Shown: positions 30,982 to 39,766, counted from the first letter of the stretch. The stretch: DNA of 64,000 nt from Nakamurella sp. (GCF_044224575.1 NZ_JBGAKE010000009.1:32162-96161), one strand, 5' to 3'. Made by a program: numbers and translations. Notes: generated by a model from the sequence alone, not told the origin.

Positions 30982-31662
30982 TCAGGCTGCCGTCGCGCAG
31001 CCCATGCACACCCATTTCGCCCCGGCCTTACCGATCCGATCCCCCACGGCAATCCGGCCGGCGCACTGCGGGCAGGTTCCGGGGAACCGGGCCGCCAGCC
31101 CACCGGAGCCCGCGTTGCCCGACGTGCCCGACGTGCCCGACGTGCCCGACGTGCCCGACGTGCTCGGGGAACGAGCCGGCCGGCGCCGGCCCGGACGCCC
31201 GTCGCCGGCCGGACCCTCGCCCATGCCGCCGGGCACCCCTGCGTTGGCCAGCGCGTCCGCCCGTTCGTTCCCGGGGTCGCCCGCATGCCCCTTCACCCAC
31301 TGCCACTCGACCGTGTGCCGGTTCGCCTGCTCGTCCAGTTGCTGCCACAGGTCGACGTTCTTGACGGGCTGCTTGCTGCCGGTCAACCAACCGTTGCGAC
31401 GCCACCCGAGCAGCCACTTGGTGATGCCGTTGAGCACGTAGGTGGAGTCGGCGTGCACGGTGACCACGGTGCCATCGGGCAGGCTGCGCAGCGCCTCCAC
31501 GACTGCACGCAACTCCATCCGGTTGTTGGTGGTGGCCGCCTCGCCGCCGGACAGTTCGACGTCCGGTCGTCCGTCCGCGCGGATCAGCGCACCCCAACCA
31601 CCCGGGCCGGGATTACCCCGGCAGGCTCCGTCCGACCACACCCGGATCCGCTGCTCGTCCAC
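30982..31662 (-). CDS. rnhA: Ribonuclease HI with a C-terminal linker and CxxC...CxxC finger
   Basis: [50 protein letters not shown]; tail [10 protein letters not shown]...WVCMGC. Confidence 0.95.
31117..31161. repeat. 9-bp tandem repeat (GCCCGACGT)x5 encoding (TSG)5 in rnhA
   Basis: Five exact copies read directly. Confidence 0.95.
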
Positions 31663-31739
31663 GACGACGATCCTGCCTGACGAACCCGGGTCGACGGGCA
31701 CCGGCGCGGACAGGGCGTGTCGGCCCCGCGAGGGAACGG

Positions 31740-32117
31740 TCACCCGCGGGTGGCGGCCGGCCGCGCGGCCGCCGGGTCGATGCGGAGGATCTTGACCAGG
31801 GGCCGGCCATTGGCCAGTTCGTCGACCAGCTTGTCCAGGTAGCGGATCCGCCGCATCAAGGGATCCTCGACGTCCTGGACCCGCACGCCGCAGACGGAGC
31901 CGGTGATCAGGGCAGCGTGCGGATTGGGCCGAGCGGCGGCAAAGAACTCCTCGAAGGTGCTCTCCTGGTCGAGGTGGCGGCCGAGTTCGGCCTCGTCGAA
32001 TCCGGTGAGCCAGCCGATGACCTCGTCGAGCTCGTCCTTGGTGCGGCCCTTGCGTTCCACCTTCGTCAGGTACAGCGGATAAACCGACGCGACGCTCGTG
32101 GTGAATATCCGGTGCAC
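31740..32117 (-). CDS. DUF2200 domain protein
   Basis: [55 protein letters not shown]. Confidence 0.9.
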
Positions 32118-32205
32118 CCCCGCACGATACGGGGCCCTGGTGCTCGATCGGCCGGTCGACCATCCGGCCACCGGCGCGAACTGACCGGTGGAACGGCCGG
32201 CACCG

Positions 32206-32916
32206 TCAGGAAGCCGCCTTGCGCAGTTCGTCGAGGTAGGCGTAGGCCGTCACCTTGGAGATGCCCAGGCGACGGGAGACGAGCTCGACCGACCGGCGAA
32301 TCTCGAACGCACCCTGCTGGTCGAGGGTGGCGAGGACGTCCATCCGGTCGGCCCGGTCCATCATCGAGACCGGCTTGCCGACCGCGTCGACCGCCGACTC
32401 GAACAGTGCGTCGAAGACGGTCGCGATGTCCGGGGCGTGCGTCTCCTTGGCCCGGGTGTCCGCACCCGTTGCGGGCAGCAGCGAACCGATCAGCGCCTGA
32501 ACGTGCTGCAGCGGGGTGATGTCGACGTTGACGCAGAGCGCGCCGATGATGTGGCCGGCCGCGTTGCGGTAGTAGACCGACGAACAGTGCAGCTGCCGGC
32601 CGTCCTCGGTCTGGCCGCGATAGCCGAAGGCGTTGTGCTCGGCCGCTTCGTCCCGCAGGACCTGCAGGCCGAGGTTCGTCGACGGCCCGCCGACGGATCG
32701 GCCGGTCACCTGGGGGTTTTCGATGGCCCGGATCGTGTGGCGCAGATCGACGTGCCGGCTGGACAGGTCATGCAGGACGACCTCGCAATGCGGCCCCACG
32801 GCCGTGGCGATGGCCCGCATCACCGGGGCCAGCAGCGCCTGGAGTTCCTCGATGGTCTCCACCGTGCCCGGGTCGACGGCGTCACCGCCCGTCGCGCGCG
32901 CACTCTGACTCGCCAT
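32206..32916 (-). CDS. YheO-like PAS + HTH transcriptional regulator
   Basis: VGPHCEVVLHDL, IEN..VTGR.VGGP.TNLG, L..SS, GALCVNVD, LDQQGAF..R.SV..V...LG.SK.T.Y.YL. Confidence 0.9.
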   Translation of the reverse strand: MASQSARATGGDAVDPGTVETIEELQALLAPVMRAIATAVGPHCEVVLHDLSSRHVDLRHTIRAIENPQVTGRSVGGPSTNLGLQVLRDEAAEHNAFGYRGQTEDGRQLHCSSVYYRNAAGHIIGALCVNVDITPLQHVQALIGSLLPATGADTRAKETHAPDIATVFDALFESAVDAVGKPVSMMDRADRMDVLATLDQQGAFEIRRSVELVSRRLGISKVTAYAYLDELRKAAS

Positions 32917-32957
32917 CCTTGTCTCCTCCCGGGCCGGTCCCTCCGGCTAGCTTAACA

Positions 32958-32986
32958 ATCTGTATTGGGTATGGACAGATAGTCCA
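32958..32986. promoter_or_regulatory. Overlapping inverted repeats in the AT-rich divergent promoter (ATCTGT-N11-ACAGAT; TGGAC-N5-GTCCA)
   Basis: Read directly; the operator role is inferred. Confidence 0.3.
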
Positions 32987-33119
32987 AGGTGCCTTACTCT
33001 TTGTTCAGCGGTAGACGGTCTGTTCGGATGGTCGGAGGTTGACGGCCCGGAACCCCGTCCCGGTCCAGCCCCGTGACCCGGCGGAGCGCTGCCCCCTTCG
33101 AGAAGATTGGTGCGATCAG

Positions 33120-33497
33120 ATGCCCAAGGTTTGCCTTTCCAGTGAGCTGTCCTCGCCGCCCGGCGGCCCCTACTCGCAGATCGTGATCCATGACGGCCTG
33201 GTCTACCTGGCAGGCTCCACCCCGCACACCCCTGGTTCCGGAGAACTGGTGGACGGCGGCTTCGACAAGCAGGCGCGGCGCGCGTTCGACAACCTGCAGG
33301 CCCTGGCGGCGGCCGCCGGCACCGACCTGTCGAACGCGTTGAAGGTCACCGTGTACCTGCGGGACTGGGCCAACTTCCCGGCGATGAACGAACTGTTCGG
33401 CCAGTACATGGGGGCGCAGCCGCCGGTGCGCACCACCATCCCGGTCGACCTGCCCGGATTCGAGATCGAGATCGACGCAATCGTCGCCGCCGCCTGA
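33120..33497 (+). CDS. RidA family reactive-intermediate/imine deaminase
   Basis: GPYSQ, VYLAGS, LKVTVYL.D...F..MNE.F, PPVRTT, IEIDAI. Confidence 0.9.
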   Translation: MPKVCLSSELSSPPGGPYSQIVIHDGLVYLAGSTPHTPGSGELVDGGFDKQARRAFDNLQALAAAAGTDLSNALKVTVYLRDWANFPAMNELFGQYMGAQPPVRTTIPVDLPGFEIEIDAIVAAA

Positions 33498-33549
33498 CGC
33501 GGCCTCCCGTCCCGCCGCACCCCCCGATCCGACCCAGAGGAGCCACCCG

Positions 33550-34863
33550 ATGCCCGCCCCCCGTCCGGTCCACCAGGACCTGGTGATCGGCCCCCAGCAC
33601 AAGTCGATCCCGGCCGCCCTCTGGGGCAGCCCGGTCTCGCGGGCGGTGGCCGGATCGCCACGACTGGCCGACTTCGCCACCCCCCTGCTGACGATCGACC
33701 GTCGAGTGCTGGACGCGAACCTGGCCGTCATGCAGCGCTGGACCGCCGCCCGGGTCCTGGATCTCGCGCCGCACGGCAAGACCACGATGGCGCCCGCCCT
33801 CTGGTCCCGGCTGTTCGACCACGGTGCCACGGCACTGACCCTGGCCACGCCCTGGCAGGTCCAGGTCGCCCGCTCGTTCGGGGTCGAGAAGATCATGCTG
33901 GCCAACACTCTCGTCTCCCCCGGCGGCATCGGGTGGATCTCGACGGAACTCGACGCCCACCCGTCGTTCGAGTTCTCCAGCTGGGTCGACAGCCGCGACG
34001 CGGTGCGCATCCTGCGGGCGGCGCTGGCCGCCCGCGGCGCCGTCCGACCGCTCGACGTCATCGTCGAACTCGGCGGCCCGGGCGGCCGCACAGGCGCCCG
34101 CAGCACGGACGAGGCTCTGGCCATCGCCCGCGACGTGGCCGCGGCTCCCGAGCTACGCCTGGGCGGGGCCGGGGGTTACGAGGGGGCACTGGCCCACGAC
34201 CGGTCCGCTGCCGGACTGGCCGCGGTGCGCGGCTACCTGCGGTCACTGGCCGAGCTCCACGGCCGGCTGGCCGCGGACCGGCTCTACGACACCGACCGGG
34301 CCGTCGTCACCGCGGGGGGTAGCGCGTACTTCGACCTGGTGGCCGACGAACTCGGCGGCCTGGTCGACCTCGACGGCGCCCGCGGCATACCGACGCGGGT
34401 GGTGCTGCGGTCCGGCGCCTATCCCATCCACGACGACGGCTTCTACCGGTCGATCTCACCGCTGGACGGGGCCGCCCGCGGCGAACCGGACCACCTGGCA
34501 TCGGCCATGCACGCCTGGGTCACCATCGTCTCGACGCCCGAACCGGGCCTCGCGCTGTTCGACGCCGGCAAGCGCGACCTGCCGTTCGACGAGGGCCTGC
34601 CCACGGCCCAGGCGATCCGCGGACGGTCCGACGAGCAGAGCGCGCGGGTGCTCGCCGACGCCCGAGTCACGGCCCTCAACGACCAGCACGGCTTCCTGCG
34701 CTTCCCCGCGGAGGTCGCCGACGAGCTCGTCGTCGGCACCGTCCTGCGGCTGGGGCTGTCCCACCCCTGCACGGCCTTCGACAAGTGGCGGCTGATCCCG
34801 CTCGTCGACGACCACACCAGCTCAGATCCGACCGTGGTCGACCTGATCCCCACCTACTTCTGA
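33550..34863 (+). CDS. Fold-type III PLP enzyme, DSD1/D-serine deaminase/D-threonine aldolase family
   Basis: TPLLTID, LAPHGKTTMAP (PLP lysine), GRTG.R, GYEG, TAGGSAYFD, LRSGAY..HD, DAGKRD, NDQHG, LSHPCTAFDKW. Confidence 0.9.
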   Translation: MPAPRPVHQDLVIGPQHKSIPAALWGSPVSRAVAGSPRLADFATPLLTIDRRVLDANLAVMQRWTAARVLDLAPHGKTTMAPALWSRLFDHGATALTLATPWQVQVARSFGVEKIMLANTLVSPGGIGWISTELDAHPSFEFSSWVDSRDAVRILRAALAARGAVRPLDVIVELGGPGGRTGARSTDEALAIARDVAAAPELRLGGAGGYEGALAHDRSAAGLAAVRGYLRSLAELHGRLAADRLYDTDRAVVTAGGSAYFDLVADELGGLVDLDGARGIPTRVVLRSGAYPIHDDGFYRSISPLDGAARGEPDHLASAMHAWVTIVSTPEPGLALFDAGKRDLPFDEGLPTAQAIRGRSDEQSARVLADARVTALNDQHGFLRFPAEVADELVVGTVLRLGLSHPCTAFDKWRLIPLVDDHTSSDPTVVDLIPTYF

Positions 34864-34907
34864 CCCGCCTGCTTCTGATCCACGTATCCCGGAACCCGAA
34901 GGACATC

Positions 34908-36542
34908 ATGACCACCCCAACCCGCCCGGCCGATGTCGTCCTGGTCGGTGGCACCGTCGTCGACGGCACCGGCGAGCCGCGCTACCGCGCCGACATCGCG
35001 ATCAGTGGCCCCACCATCATCCGGATCGGTGACTGCGCCGACCTGGTCACCGATACCGCGACGACGCGCGTCGTCGACGCCGCCGGCCTGGTCATCGCGC
35101 CAGGCTTCATCGACATGCACGCCCATTCCGACCTGCAGATCCTGCTCAACCCGGACCACGTCGCCAAGATCAGCCAAGGGGTCACCACCGAGGTACTCGG
35201 CCAGGACGGACTGTCCTACGCCCCGGTCGACGACGCCGTGCTGGCCCAGGTGCGCCGGCAGATCGCCGGATGGAACGGCAACCCTGCGGATTTTGACTTC
35301 TCCTGGCGCACCGTGGCGCAGTTTCTGGACCGGCTGGACCAGGGCATCGCCACCAATGCCGCCTATCTGGTGCCACAGGGCACCCTCCGGCTGCTGGTCG
35401 TCGGCCCGGACGACCGGCCGGCCACGGCCGACGAGATCGCCCGCATGCAGGACGTTCTCGCCGAGAGCCTGCAGGCGGGTGCGGTCGGCCTGTCCAGCGG
35501 GCTCACCTACACCCCGGGCATGTACGCCGATACCGGTGAGCTGGCCGCACTCTGCGAGGTGGTCGCCGCGCACGGCGGCTACTACTGCCCGCACACCCGG
35601 TCCTACGGCGCCGGCGCCCTGGCCGCCTACACCGAGATGCTGGACCTCGCCCGGTCGACCGGTTGCCCGGTGCACCTGACCCACGCCACCATGAACTTCG
35701 CCGAGAACGCCGGCCGGGCCGGCGAGTTCCTGGCCCTGGTCGACGCCGCCCTCGCCGACGGGTGCGACATCAGCCTGGACACCTACCCCTACCTGCCGGG
35801 CTGCACCACCCTGTCCGCGCTACTGCCCAGCTGGGCCGCCGCCGGCGGGCCCGACGCGCTGCTGGCCCGACTGGCGGACCCGCAGGCCCGGGAACGGATC
35901 CGGGTCGACGTCGAGCAAACCGGTTCCGACGGCTGCCACGGCGTCGTCGTGGAGTGGGACACGATCCAGATCAGCGGGGTCGGGAACGCCGACCTGGCCG
36001 GTCTCGTCGGATCCACCGTCGCCGAGATCGCCGCCCGGGAAGGGCGTTCCGGCACCGACGTGTTCTTCGATCTGCTCCGCCGCGACGAACTCGCCACCAC
36101 GATCCTGCAACACGTCGGCCACGAGGACAACGTCCGGGCGATCATGCAGCATCGCACCCACATGGGCGGCAGCGACGGCATTCTCGTCGGTGACCGGCCA
36201 CATCCCCGGGCCTGGGGCACCTTCCCGCGCTACCTTGCGCACTACAGCCGGGAACTCGGCCTGCTCGGCCTGGAGGAGTGCGTCGCCCACCTCACCGGAC
36301 GGGCCGCCGACCGGCTGCGGCTGGCCGATCGCGGGTTCGTCCGCGAGGGCTACGCCGCCGACCTGGTGGTGTTCGATCCCGTCACCGTCGCCGACACGGC
36401 GACCTTCGCCGATCCCCGGCAACCCGCCACCGGGATTCCGTTCGTCCTGGTCAACGGCGTCCTCGCCGTCGACCGCAACCGCCCGACCGGGCACCGCGCC
36501 GGACATGCGCTGCGGCGCGGGGACGACCGCGCGGTCCGTTGA
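34908..36542 (+). CDS. N-acyl-D-amino-acid deacylase (D-aminoacylase)
   Basis: APGFIDMHAHSD, QGVTTEVLGQDG, GLSSGLTY.PG, SDG, HPRAWGTFPRYL, ADLVVFDP. Confidence 0.92.
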   Translation: MTTPTRPADVVLVGGTVVDGTGEPRYRADIAISGPTIIRIGDCADLVTDTATTRVVDAAGLVIAPGFIDMHAHSDLQILLNPDHVAKISQGVTTEVLGQDGLSYAPVDDAVLAQVRRQIAGWNGNPADFDFSWRTVAQFLDRLDQGIATNAAYLVPQGTLRLLVVGPDDRPATADEIARMQDVLAESLQAGAVGLSSGLTYTPGMYADTGELAALCEVVAAHGGYYCPHTRSYGAGALAAYTEMLDLARSTGCPVHLTHATMNFAENAGRAGEFLALVDAALADGCDISLDTYPYLPGCTTLSALLPSWAAAGGPDALLARLADPQARERIRVDVEQTGSDGCHGVVVEWDTIQISGVGNADLAGLVGSTVAEIAAREGRSGTDVFFDLLRRDELATTILQHVGHEDNVRAIMQHRTHMGGSDGILVGDRPHPRAWGTFPRYLAHYSRELGLLGLEECVAHLTGRAADRLRLADRGFVREGYAADLVVFDPVTVADTATFADPRQPATGIPFVLVNGVLAVDRNRPTGHRAGHALRRGDDRAVR

Positions 36543-36597
36543 CCCGTCGCTGCCCACCCGGTCACCCCACCCTCCCACTCATCCGATTGGACCGACA

Positions 36598-38112
36598 ATG
36601 ACCGTCGTCTCCTGGTTTCAGGACACCACCGGGGGCCTGCTGACCCTCTGCGCCATCGCCGTGGCCGTCCTGCTGTTCCTGATCATCAAAGTCAAACTCG
36701 AACCGTTCATCGCGCTCGTCCTGGTCGGGTTGGGCCTGGGCCTGGCCGCCGGCCTGTCCGTCACCGAGCTCGTCGGTACAGCCCTCAAATCTGGAGACTC
36801 CCTGCTCGAGACCGGCTTCGGCGGGATCCTCGGGCACATCGCAGTGATCATCGGACTGGGCACCGTGCTCGGCGCGATCCTGGAGCGGTCCGGGGGCGCC
36901 GACACGCTGACCAACGTGCTGATGCGGCTGTTCGGTGAGAAGCGGGCCCCGATCGCCATGGGGCTGCTCGGCCTGATCGTCGGCATCCCGGTCTTCTTCG
37001 ACATCGGCATCTTCGTGCTGGCACCGCTGGTGTACGTCACCGCGCTGCGGGGCCGCCGGTCGCTGGTCCTCTACGCGCTGCCGATGCTGGCCGGCCTGTC
37101 GATGACCCACGCGTTCCTGCCGCCGCATCCCGGTCCCGTCGCGCTGGCCGGCCTGCTCGGCGTCGATCTCGGCTACCTGATCATGATGGGCCTGGTCTGC
37201 GGCCTGCCCGGGTTCGTCGCCGCGGGTCTGGTCTGGGGCACCTGGATCGGCAAGCGGGTCATGGTCGAGGTCCCCGCCGATTTCATCGTCGGCGAGATGG
37301 AGCACGGGCTGGCCGACAAGACCCCGGGAGAGTCCGGGGCGGCCGGCGGATCCGGCTCGGGCACGGTGCCCGGCAGCGGCGGCGGTGGCGGTGGTGTGGC
37401 CCGGACGGCGGTCGAGTCGAAGGTCGAGCTCGGCGTCGATGGACCGAAGATGCCGCTGGTGGCGTTCGTCATCGCGACCCCGCTGGTGCTGATCCTGGGC
37501 GCGACGTTCGGCACCATGCTGTTGCCGGCGGAGAGCGGCCTGCTGCCCTGGCTGACCTTCTTCGGCAATCCCGCGGTCGCCCTGCTGATCGCCGTGCTGC
37601 TGTCGTTCTACTTCCTCGGCGTGCGGCGCGGCATGTCGGTGGCGTCGCTGGGCAAGCTGACCGGCGAGTCGCTGCGACCGATCGGCATGATCCTGCTCGT
37701 CGTCGGGGCCGGCGCCTTCTTCGGCAAGGTGATCTCCGCGACCGGCATCGGTGCCGCCCTGGCCGAAACCCTCTCGGCCTGGGGCCTGCCGGTGATCGTG
37801 CTCGCCTACGTGCTCAGCTGCGGCCTCCGGATCGCCCAGGGCTCGGCCACCGTGGCCATCGTGACCACCGGCGGCATCGTCGGACCGCTGGTCGCCACCG
37901 CCGGCTACTCGCAGATCCAGCTCGCCCTGATCGCGATGGCCATCGCCGCCGGCTCGATCATCTGCAGCCACGTGAACGACGGTGGGTTCTGGATCATCGC
38001 CAAGTACTTCAACATGACGGTGAAGCAGACCCTGCAGACCTGGACCGTGCTGGAGACGGTGCTCTCGGTCGTCAGCTTCGCGGTCGCCGGCACCCTATTC
38101 GCGGTGATCTGA
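36598..38112 (+). CDS. GntP family (gluconate:H+ symporter-like) permease
   Basis: KVKLEPFIAL, GLGTVLGAILERSGGA, PVFFDIG, THAFLPPHPGP, LRIAQGSATVA, SHVNDGGFW..KYF. Confidence 0.92.
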   Translation: MTVVSWFQDTTGGLLTLCAIAVAVLLFLIIKVKLEPFIALVLVGLGLGLAAGLSVTELVGTALKSGDSLLETGFGGILGHIAVIIGLGTVLGAILERSGGADTLTNVLMRLFGEKRAPIAMGLLGLIVGIPVFFDIGIFVLAPLVYVTALRGRRSLVLYALPMLAGLSMTHAFLPPHPGPVALAGLLGVDLGYLIMMGLVCGLPGFVAAGLVWGTWIGKRVMVEVPADFIVGEMEHGLADKTPGESGAAGGSGSGTVPGSGGGGGGVARTAVESKVELGVDGPKMPLVAFVIATPLVLILGATFGTMLLPAESGLLPWLTFFGNPAVALLIAVLLSFYFLGVRRGMSVASLGKLTGESLRPIGMILLVVGAGAFFGKVISATGIGAALAETLSAWGLPVIVLAYVLSCGLRIAQGSATVAIVTTGGIVGPLVATAGYSQIQLALIAMAIAAGSIICSHVNDGGFWIIAKYFNMTVKQTLQTWTVLETVLSVVSFAVAGTLFAVI

Positions 38113-38168
38113 CCCACCGCTCGGCCCTTCCCTGACCGACCTCCCCACACCTACCGAGGACACCTGAA

Positions 38169-38816
38169 ATGCCCACCCGTCTGGACCTTCCACCCGCCGT
38201 GCGCGAGTCCGGTGTCGTCGCGGTGCTCCGCGCCACGGACGCCGACCGGTACGCGCCCGTCGTCGACGTTCTTGCCGAGAACGGCGTGCACGCCATCGAA
38301 CTGACCATGAGCACGCCCGGCACCCTCGATGCCGTCGCCGCTCTCCGCGGCCGGATCGCCGGCAGCGGAGCCGCCCTCGGCGTCGGGACCGTCACGGACC
38401 CCGAAACAGCTGGGAAGGTAATCGATCTCGGCGCCGAGTTCATCGTCACGCCGACCATGTCCCCCGAGGTCGTCCGGATCGCCGTCGACGCCGGCATTCC
38501 GGTCTACCCGGGGGCGCTGACCCCCACCGAGGTGCTCGCCGGGTGGCAGGCCGGCGCCACGGCCGTGAAGCTGTTCCCGGCGTCCACCGTCGGCCCGTCC
38601 TACCTGGGTCACCTGCACGGGCCGTTCCCCCAGATCCCGCTGCTGCCCTCCGGCGGCTTCGGTCTTCCCGAGATCGGGAAATGGATCGGCGCCGGAGCGG
38701 TCGCCGTCAGCATGGGATCGTCGCTGATCGGCGACGCCCTGCGCGGTGGCAGCCTGGCCGACCTGGCCCGGCGCTGCCGGGACGCCGTCGATGCGGTCCG
38801 TCGGGCGCGGTCATGA
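38169..38816 (+). CDS. eda: KDPG/KHG aldolase
   Basis: VVAVLR, IELTM.TP, GVGTV, FIVTP, PGALTPTE, VKLFPA, PSGG. Confidence 0.88.
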   Translation: MPTRLDLPPAVRESGVVAVLRATDADRYAPVVDVLAENGVHAIELTMSTPGTLDAVAALRGRIAGSGAALGVGTVTDPETAGKVIDLGAEFIVTPTMSPEVVRIAVDAGIPVYPGALTPTEVLAGWQAGATAVKLFPASTVGPSYLGHLHGPFPQIPLLPSGGFGLPEIGKWIGAGAVAVSMGSSLIGDALRGGSLADLARRCRDAVDAVRRARS

Positions 38817-39766
38817 GCAGCGCTGCGGCCACCGGAGGCGTCCTGACCATCGGCGAGAGCCTCGGCCTGGTCGTCACCGACGGGCCCCTGCACGAGCACC
38901 GGACCCGCGTCGGGTTCGGCGGGGCCGAATCCAACGTGGCCATTGCGTTGCGCCGGCTGGGCGTGCCCGTGACCTGGGTGAGCCGGCTGGGTGAGGATCC
39001 GTTCGGCGACCTCATCGAGCGGGAGCTGCGCGCCGAGGGCGTCACCGTCCGGGTCACCCGCAGCGACACCGACCCCACCGGGCTGATGGTCAAGCAGCGG
39101 CGGCCACTGGGACGCAGCCGGGTCCGGTACTACCGCTCGACCAGCGCGGCCACCCGGCTGACCGGTGCCGACGTCACCCGGGAGCAACTCGAGGAGGCCG
39201 CCGTGGTGCACCTCACCGGGATCACCGCGGCGATCTCGACGAGCGCCCGCGAGGCCGTCCTGGACGTCGCCCGCCGCGCGCGCGAGGCCGGCACCCGGGT
39301 GTCCTTCGACCTGAACCACCGGTCCACACTGTGGGACCGGGCGCAGGCCGCCGCGACCTTCCGGCAGATCCTGCCGCTTACCGACGTCGTCTTCGCCGGC
39401 GACGACGAGGCCCGCATCCTGTTCCCCGAGATCCACGATCCGGCCGAACTTGCCGCCGCCCTCGCCGGACTCGGCCCGACCGAGGCGGTCATCAAGCTCG
39501 GCGAGCACGGCGCCCTGGCCCGCACGGCCGACACCGTGCACCGCCAGTCCGCCATGCCCATCGAGCCGGTCGACACGGTCGGCGCCGGCGACGGCTTCGT
39601 TGCCGGCTATCTCAGCGAGATCCTCGCCGGCGCCCCGGTGCCGGCCCGTCTGCGCACCGGCACCCAGGTCGGCGCCTACGCCTGCCTCGGGCCCGGCGAC
39701 TGGGAATCCATGCCCACCCGGGCGGACCTGCAGGTCGATCCCGCCGCGGACGCGGTCGACCGATAG
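38813..39766 (+). CDS. kdgK: PfkB-family sugar kinase, 2-keto-3-deoxygluconate kinase-like
   Basis: GGAESNVAIAL.RLG, VHLTGIT, SFDLNHR..LW, VDTVGAGDGF; ATGA overlap with eda. Confidence 0.8.
   Translation: MSSAAATGGVLTIGESLGLVVTDGPLHEHRTRVGFGGAESNVAIALRRLGVPVTWVSRLGEDPFGDLIERELRAEGVTVRVTRSDTDPTGLMVKQRRPLGRSRVRYYRSTSAATRLTGADVTREQLEEAAVVHLTGITAAISTSAREAVLDVARRAREAGTRVSFDLNHRSTLWDRAQAAATFRQILPLTDVVFAGDDEARILFPEIHDPAELAAALAGLGPTEAVIKLGEHGALARTADTVHRQSAMPIEPVDTVGAGDGFVAGYLSEILAGAPVPARLRTGTQVGAYACLGPGDWESMPTRADLQVDPAADAVDR

Follow-up and report, generated by a model that had tools for sequence, protein, structure and literature searches.

A candidate operon for catabolism of an N-acylated amino-sugar acid in Nakamurella, with relatives in other Actinobacteria

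Gene content and layout of the locus

A stretch of 64,000 nucleotides from Nakamurella sp. (GCF_044224575.1 NZ_JBGAKE010000009.1:32162-96161; hereafter, the window) contains, at positions 32206-39766, six co-directional genes and a divergent regulator gene. The original prediction had named this set as ridA, a pyridoxal phosphate (PLP)-dependent deaminase, a D-aminoacylase, a GntP permease, eda and kdgK, with a divergent YheO-like regulator, and all seven genes were recovered. We think it probable, if well short of certain, that this self-regulated operon breaks down an N-acyl-2-amino-2-deoxy-D-aldonic acid, with N-acetyl-D-glucosaminate (GlcNAc1A) as the likeliest candidate.

Oxidation of chitin or of GlcNAc gives rise to GlcNAc1A, which forms the aldonic-acid end of chitin fragments oxidised by lytic polysaccharide monooxygenases (LPMOs) (PMC9537276). 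Its conversion to 2-keto-3-deoxygluconate (KDG) 6-phosphate by the ong route was established in Pseudoalteromonas prydzensis ACAM 620 by knock-outs and in vitro assays (Jiang et al, 2022; PMC9537276). There, the D-aminoacylase-like OngB, whose structure has been solved (Wang et al, 2025; PMC12017989), removes the acetyl group of GlcNAc1A; deamination by OngC, a fold-III PLP enzyme, then yields KDG, which is phosphorylated by KdgK, and in vivo the route also needs the RidA protein OngD (PMC9537276). The features of the Nakamurella locus are as follows.

32206-32916, minus strand: YheO-like regulator (Pfam PAS_6, 3.7e-33, and HTH_22, 8.8e-19), divergent to the other six genes
32949-33029, no strand: conserved candidate promoter/operator block (about 80 bp) of lower GC content, with the short palindromes GGACAGATAGTCC and AGACGGTCT
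33117-33497, plus strand: ridA, counterpart of OngD (Pfam Ribonuc_L-PSP, 1.4e-25)
33550-34863, plus strand: fold-III PLP enzyme, predicted to be a metal-dependent OngC-type D-glucosaminate dehydratase/ammonia-lyase (D-ser_dehydrat, 8e-20)
34908-36542, plus strand: amidohydrolase of the D-aminoacylase family lacking the Cys metal ligand (Cys-less), predicted N-acyl-D-glucosaminate deacylase (Amidohydro_3, 1.3e-37)
36601-38112, plus strand: GntP-family sugar-acid:H+ symporter, predicted importer (GntP_permease, 1e-120)
38169-38816, plus strand: 2-keto-3-deoxy-6-phosphogluconate (KDPG) aldolase Eda (PF01081, 2.5e-37; TIGR01182 over cut-off)
38813-39766, plus strand: PfkB-family KDG kinase KdgK (PfkB, 2.3e-52)

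The window has a G+C content of about 72%, and third-position GC (GC3) backs every frame between 32206 and 39766 (one gene on the minus and six on the plus strand); all seven reading frames are intact. The six co-directional genes are spaced by 44-58 bp, except for eda and kdgK, which share an ATGA overlap. Comparison with the rest of the host genome, which is 5.54 Mb and 96% complete, revealed no close copies of the operon genes, the next-best KdgK homologue being at most about 30% identical.

The closest relatives of the deacylase (89-94% identical) come from metagenomes, and two at 82-89% are named Nakamurella. Among 24 further genomes sampled from the genus, the cluster turned up in just three, and the seven-gene order in two or three: intact in G020, and imperfect in G015, where a contig end inside the PLP gene hides ridA and the regulator, and in G007. 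The latter, a complete genome (L014:7513-10713), has two frame breaks, one near residue 190 of the deacylase (accompanied by a single in-frame TGA) and the other near residue 133 of GntP, which reflect either gene decay or assembly indel errors. The seven-gene cluster is an accessory trait within the genus. Its patchy presence and the frameshifts of G007 would fit a fortuitous adjacency, or a decaying operon without a coherent pathway. We regard this explanation as very improbable, given the intact frames with coding-type GC3, the conservation of gene order across genera and even phyla, and the presence of a deacylase ortholog in 146 of 151 Streptomyces genomes (see below). The grouping of the seven genes is not due to chance; the order recurs in the genus and its core in 50 actinobacterial loci.

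The PLP enzyme groups with OngC-type deaminases

The best solved relative of the PLP enzyme is 3gwq, named 'D-serine deaminase' (6.7e-56), with D-threonine aldolases at 1e-20 or weaker. In an alignment of 84 family members, at least 97% keep Lys77 (within a PHGK motif) and His405-x-Cys407, and both are shared with 3gwq; Lys77 is the presumed PLP-binding lysine and His-x-Cys the presumed C-terminal metal motif of the D-ser_dehydrat domain. In a maximum-likelihood tree, the enzyme falls in a clade of 50 rows (support 100, stem 2.21) that contains actinobacterial and proteobacterial sequences and lies apart from other D-ser_dehydrat proteins, separate from both D-serine dehydratases and D-threonine aldolases. 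The OngC-type proteobacterial set in this tree was recognised via neighbours with the OngB signature, not via an authentic OngC sequence.

A search of 351 Pseudomonadota genomes with the PLP enzyme as query returned homologues (32-42% identity) in 26. A D-aminoacylase-family gene adjoins the PLP gene in 15 proteobacterial loci, mostly together with RidA, KdgK, Eda or GntP. All 15 neighbouring amidohydrolases carry the OngB signature, 12 of them exactly over 17 positions and three with one change in the Ser290-Ser292 triad. Because these neighbours carry the residues of the crystal structure of PpOngB, we regard the 15 loci as true ong-type clusters and our column mapping as validated. By clade, then, the Nakamurella PLP enzyme is assigned to the OngC type. 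Four further proteobacterial loci (L112, L113, L118 and L120, in Pseudomonadota genomes G265, G373, G379 and G101) have kdgK alone beside the PLP gene, without a deacylase, and are probably plain D-glucosaminate utilisation loci.

The RidA protein scored 90.5 bits against TIGR00004, under the cut-off of 106. Solved RidA/YjgF proteins align with it over its full length, and the Arg of the P-x-R motif, which we read as the catalytic Arg, is conserved. The ridA start at 33117 is backed by alignment with G020 and G007.

The deacylase belongs to a Cys-less lineage

Among solved structures, the deacylase is most similar to the Alcaligenes D-aminoacylase AfDam (1m7j, 3.4e-89), and PpOngB (9kb1) matches at 6.4e-71. 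The match to 1m7j runs in two stretches (residues 5-303 and 366-538) and PF07969 spans residues 54-519; homology of the beta-domain, barrel and insertion domain places the protein in the D-aminoacylase family. Compared with AfDam, it has about 42 additional residues in the insertion or 'lid' domain, the part that shuts over the substrate.

Within the family tree, enzymes with the OngB signature group together (support 100) among the Cys-type enzymes, and all 15 proteobacterial amidohydrolases beside OngC-type genes keep the Cys metal ligand; the Nakamurella deacylase is placed apart from them, in a Cys-less clade (supports 98-99). Joining it with OngB in one clade, a group chosen post hoc in view of the tree, cost 76 log-likelihood units (approximately unbiased (AU) test, p-AU 0.0007). 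Orthology to OngB was rejected on the basis of the residue signature (see below), the tree and the AU test. Cys-less enzymes have been described as 'cluster B' D-acylases, and a 2025 review raised the question of other natural activities (PMC12149444).

Deacylase and deaminase genes are neighbours across Actinobacteria

We scanned one genome per species, which returned 80 loci, and defined a subset of 50 actinobacterial loci with a deacylase at least 57% identical to that of the window (14 named genera; 32 loci from Streptomyces). The resulting counts are descriptive, related genomes not being independent. An OngC-type gene is immediately adjacent to the deacylase gene in 48 of the 50 loci, and a PfkB KdgK homologue lies within 7 kb in 42. 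Other neighbours were IclR (42 loci), GntP (27), RidA (at least 29) and Eda (7), and annotated examples in Nocardia, Kribbella and Salana have the same gene sets. In Streptomyces, 146 of 151 species genomes encode exactly one ortholog of the deacylase (58-66% identical). In three complete Streptomyces genomes no OngB-signature protein was found, and the cluster deacylase was the sole Cys-less family member detected. No phosphoenolpyruvate carboxykinase gene lies beside the cluster in the one Streptomyces genome that we probed with regard to orthology to the characterised S. coelicolor enzyme Sco4986. Literature searches found no mention of the SCO genes neighbouring the cluster, and no paper linking GlcNAc1A catabolism to Streptomyces or other Actinobacteria.

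Two further gene contexts bear on the substrate. Clusters in G037 (L015:6690-15560) and Arthrobacter sp. H5 (L078) encode a deacylase that is 51-53% identical and falls in the same clade, alongside PfkB, IclR, Eda and RidA, and have a homologue of DgaE, glucosaminate-6-phosphate ammonia-lyase, instead of the OngC-type deaminase; the G037 locus additionally encodes a sugar-type ATP-binding cassette (ABC) transporter binding protein and an aldo/keto reductase. As judged from homology, this is a non-orthologous displacement, in which an unrelated enzyme with a known glucosaminate substrate took the deaminase's place, tying the deacylase clade to glucosaminate. Moreover, a paralogous pair in the same genus (L019:4106-13008 in G022; L020:7960-12666 in G004) lies between short-chain dehydrogenases and a lactonase. 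The pair consists of genes for an OngC-type PLP enzyme (52% identical) and a Cys-less deacylase (39% identical); the module further encodes a short-chain dehydrogenase and a seven-bladed lactonase, and in G022 there is also a second dehydrogenase and a nearby GH2 glycosidase gene. The module looks like a route for intracellular oxidation of an N-acetyl-hexosamine to the aldonic acid before deacetylation and deamination. Because converting a sugar to its aldonic acid takes dehydrogenases and lactonases, this context supports a sugar-acid substrate.

Apart from these, L069 (uncultured Rhodobacteraceae) and L080 (Sanguibacter sp. Z1732) have Cys-less deacylases (51-54% identical) near a far more distant fold-III PLP enzyme, a lactonase and IclR. 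These PLP enzymes (26-30% identical) fall outside the OngC clade, and this type may be another substrate variant.

Transporter, aldolase and kinase

GntP scored 367 bits against TIGR00791, above the cut-off, and 216.8 bits against the model of the D-serine transporter DsdX (NF007395; cut-off 618), gluconate-type models scoring far higher. Four proteobacterial clusters whose deacetylases carry the OngB signature (L119, L121, L123 and L127) likewise include a GntP gene. Eda passed the TIGR01182 'eda' model (164.4 bits; cut-off 156.05) and is nearer the solved Thermotoga KDPG aldolase 1wa3 (6e-36) than the 2-keto-3-deoxy-6-phosphogalactonate (KDPGal) aldolase 2v81 (3.7e-25). The best solved relative of KdgK is the Thermus thermophilus KDG kinase 1v19 (9.2e-55). 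No equivalog-level NCBIfam match was found for the kinase, its best match being a model for bifunctional KDG/2-keto-3-deoxygalactonate (KDGal) kinases, well under cut-off. Judging by these similarities, the kinase and aldolase fit gluco-type (KDG/KDPG) enzymes best.

Weighing the candidate substrates

The original prediction left the sugar configuration and the acyl group open, a caution that proved justified, as the deacylase lies outside the characterised OngB family. OngB enzymes hydrolyse GlcNAc1A specifically, and not N-acetyl-D-amino acids; the subtype-V metal site of PpOngB comprises Cys97, His222 and His252, with the catalytic Asp368 and His68-x-His70 (PMC12017989). We tracked 17 OngB active-site positions in the deacylase alignment. 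Tyr194, Tyr285 and Arg379 are retained in the Nakamurella enzyme, Leu370 is Ile, the small residues Ala193 and Ala256 are Thr and Asn, and the loop around Gln298 is remodelled and longer, with no alignable counterpart.

A number of observations weigh against GlcNAc1A as the substrate. Eight of the 17 substrate-defining or substrate-positioning residues of PpOngB are changed in the deacylase (signature HHDTYHYHTNYGCTDIR, vs HHCAYHEHKAYSSSDLR in 12 of the 15 OngB-type enzymes). The metal ligand Cys97 corresponds to Asp100, with HxH, both His and Asp retained; Glu226 (C4-OH) is replaced by Tyr, Lys254, which binds the carboxylate, by Thr, and the Ser290-Ser291-Ser292 triad by Gly-Cys-Thr, and a Ser292Thr mutation cuts the efficiency of PpOngB about 80-fold (PMC12017989). 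OngC also deaminates D-serine and D-threonine (PMC9537276), and Cys-less 'cluster B' D-acylases of Streptomyces and Gluconobacter are reported to act on N-acyl-D-amino acids (PMC12149444). Because the cluster enzyme is the only Cys-less member found in three Streptomyces genomes, these Streptomyces D-acylases may belong to the clade of the window deacylase, for which they would then be an in vitro precedent with N-acyl-D-amino acids. Finally, the cluster is scarce within the genus, and we found no LPMO_10 (PF03067), GH20 (PF00728) or GH18 (PF00704) protein in the host's own 96%-complete genome, which leaves no in-genome source of the acid. On the other hand, the same clade placement would suggest that the Cys-less Streptomyces D-acylases have never been tried on their natural substrate.

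The changes where the C3-OH, the C4-OH and the carboxylate bind in OngB, together with the longer lid, would also be expected if the operon performed the same chemistry on another amino-aldonic substrate, such as N-acetyl-D-galactosaminate, an acid with another acyl group, glucosaminate linked to a peptide, or chiefly free D-glucosaminate, in which case the deacylase would handle a minor side substrate. The weak match of the kinase to a bifunctional KDG/KDGal model points in the same direction, and the four proteobacterial loci without a deacylase indicate that free glucosaminate serves as a substrate in pathways with this family of PLP enzymes. We nevertheless give this alternative only a minor, if real, chance. 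Eda passes the KDPG-type model and is nearer to KDPG than to KDPGal aldolase, the constancy of the deacylase beside the PLP gene shows that it is no dispensable accessory, and the ong and OngB literature describes no other N-acyl amino-aldonic acid that is abundant in nature (PMC9537276, PMC12017989).

Salvage of D-amino acids is the other explanation to be considered, and we hold it to be distinctly unlikely. The deacylase would act on N-acyl-D-amino acids (N-acetyl-D-serine, N-acetyl-D-threonine or hydrophobic ones), the PLP enzyme and RidA would yield pyruvate or 2-oxobutyrate, and kdgK, eda and gntP would be separate. Besides the activities listed for Cys-less D-acylases and the action of OngC on D-serine and D-threonine, it can draw on the membership of DsdX in the GntP family and on loci in Salana, Microbacterium and Glaciibacter in which the set is limited to RidA, PLP enzyme and deacylase. 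However, the association with kdgK extends over many genera, and here kdgK is translationally coupled to eda; the transporter scores far above DsdX with gluconate-type models; and neither the displacement by a glucosaminate-6-phosphate ammonia-lyase homologue nor the dehydrogenase and lactonase context fits a pathway for D-serine or D-threonine.

Regulator, intergenic region and flanking genes

A YheO-type regulator occupies the same position in G020 and G007 (86-92% identical), and this type is likewise present at the Salana multivorans cluster. Because most other actinobacterial clusters have an IclR regulator in its place, we regard the regulator as interchangeable. Our structure search returned no solved relative of the YheO-type protein, and nothing useful was found in the literature on YheO/DauR regulators. 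Within the divergent intergenic region, in which an inverted repeat was detected, most columns of the block at 32949-33029 are identical across the window, G020 and G007, and the surrounding intergenic DNA is variable. This conservation makes the block a candidate operator for the YheO-type regulator, and the PAS-HTH (helix-turn-helix) protein probably acts on this block in response to the substrate or a pathway intermediate. Scans for sigma-70 promoter and intrinsic-terminator consensus sequences, which are uninformative for a high-GC actinobacterium, gave no sites.

The flanking genes are unrelated to the operon: GT2, FkbM methyltransferase, RNase H and DUF2200 genes on one side, and a sigma-70 factor and DUF5995 on the other. 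The product of the RNase H gene (30982-31680, minus strand) has at its C-terminus a linker of Thr-Ser-Gly repeats and then a zinc-ribbon-like CxxC...CxxC tail, and the DUF2200 gene (31740-32171, minus strand) lies between the RNase H gene and the regulator.

Source of the acid

As in the host genome, LPMO and GH20 proteins were not found in G020, G007 and G015, and the operon itself has neither a GH20 hexosaminidase of the OngA type nor outer-membrane receptors, in which it departs from ong-type clusters for oxidative chitin utilisation. Because its genome has no LPMO, GH20 or GH18, the host would scavenge free acid made by others; the source would be uptake of the free acid from other organisms or of acid formed by sugar oxidases. 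For this operon, we infer the connection to chitin on ecological grounds.

We also scanned 33 Streptomyces and Kitasatospora loci for DasR boxes and found 13 sites vs about three expected, with sites within a few kb in 9 of the 33 loci. In three Pfam-checked loci, the DasR-box-like sites precede a neighbouring GH18 chitinase gene and not the cluster promoters. These loci, all from Streptomyces spp. (L060:2236-4260, L062:917-2719 and L040:550-2361), contain a CBM4_9-fn3-GH18 gene with tandem sites, e.g. ATTGGTCTGGACCAGT, located 0-4 kb from the cluster and, in L060, directly beside gntP. As the strains are related, the DasR-box association is only a weak hint.

Proposed pathway

From the observed gene content, the family and clade placements and the conserved neighbourhoods, we infer which substrate is used, in what order the enzymes act and how the operon is regulated. 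GntP would import N-acetyl-D-glucosaminate and the Cys-less amidohydrolase would strip the acyl group to give D-glucosaminate. The OngC-type PLP enzyme would then eliminate the C3 hydroxyl, and the resulting enamine/imine, aided by RidA, would be hydrolysed to KDG and ammonia. KdgK would convert KDG to KDPG, which Eda would split into pyruvate and glyceraldehyde-3-phosphate. The original prediction had proposed this sequence of import, deacylation, beta-elimination and RidA, KdgK and Eda steps, and it is supported by the OngC clade, the conserved neighbourhood of deacylase, PLP enzyme and kdgK genes, and the published ong pathway. As to the deacylase lineage, there is in our estimate about an even chance that the Cys-less 'D-aminoacylases' are the natural N-acetyl-D-glucosaminate deacetylase of Actinobacteria, joined to an OngC-type deaminase independently of OngB.

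LPMOs convert part of the world's chitin into aldonic-acid ends, and the fate of the acid is known only for Gammaproteobacteria. If our reading is correct, Actinobacteria, including almost all sampled Streptomyces, own a version of the pathway with a second, independently recruited deacetylase lineage, which would provide soil actinomycetes with the missing downstream part of oxidative chitin turnover. Non-chitinolytic bacteria such as the host could then cross-feed on the acid and count as consumers of oxidised chitin, and the physiological role of Cys-less D-acylases, asked about in the 2025 review (PMC12149444), would become directly testable. Should the substrate differ, the conserved deacylase/deaminase pair would still mark an undescribed route for an amino-sugar acid.

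Comparison with known systems

The operon resembles ong clusters in its amidohydrolase of D-aminoacylase fold, its fold-III PLP deaminase of the same clade, its RidA protein and its PfkB KDG kinase. The aldolase gene, too, has a counterpart (kdgA) in some ong clusters, namely those of Vibrio, Klebsiella and Serratia (PMC9537276), and a GntP-type permease occurs in some proteobacterial clusters with the OngB signature. It differs in having a deacylase of the separate Cys-less clade in place of OngB, a YheO-type regulator in place of the RpiR-type OngR, and GntP as importer in place of the SSS transporter OngIT. The ong system further includes the GH20 enzyme OngA and TonB-dependent receptors, both of which are missing from the Nakamurella operon, and, unlike in ong, the host is an actinobacterium whose genome has no LPMO or chitinase. 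A genome survey found complete ong pathways only in Gammaproteobacteria and one Betaproteobacterium (PMC9537276).

With the DgaE route, which uses a phosphotransferase system (PTS), the operon would share an amino-aldonic acid substrate and KDPG as the end product split by an Eda-type aldolase. The window has neither a PTS nor a DgaE-type enzyme, and deamination would take place on the unphosphorylated acid, by a fold-III enzyme and after deacylation. The Cys-less D-acylases of the literature have the same fold and the same loss of the Cys ligand as the Nakamurella deacylase; their characterisation, aimed at biocatalysis, used N-acyl-D-amino acids and left genomic context aside. The proposed route was published in 2022 as the ong pathway and the idea is therefore not new; what is new is its actinobacterial form, with a Cys-less deacetylase lineage, a GntP importer, a YheO-type regulator and a host without chitinolytic enzymes.

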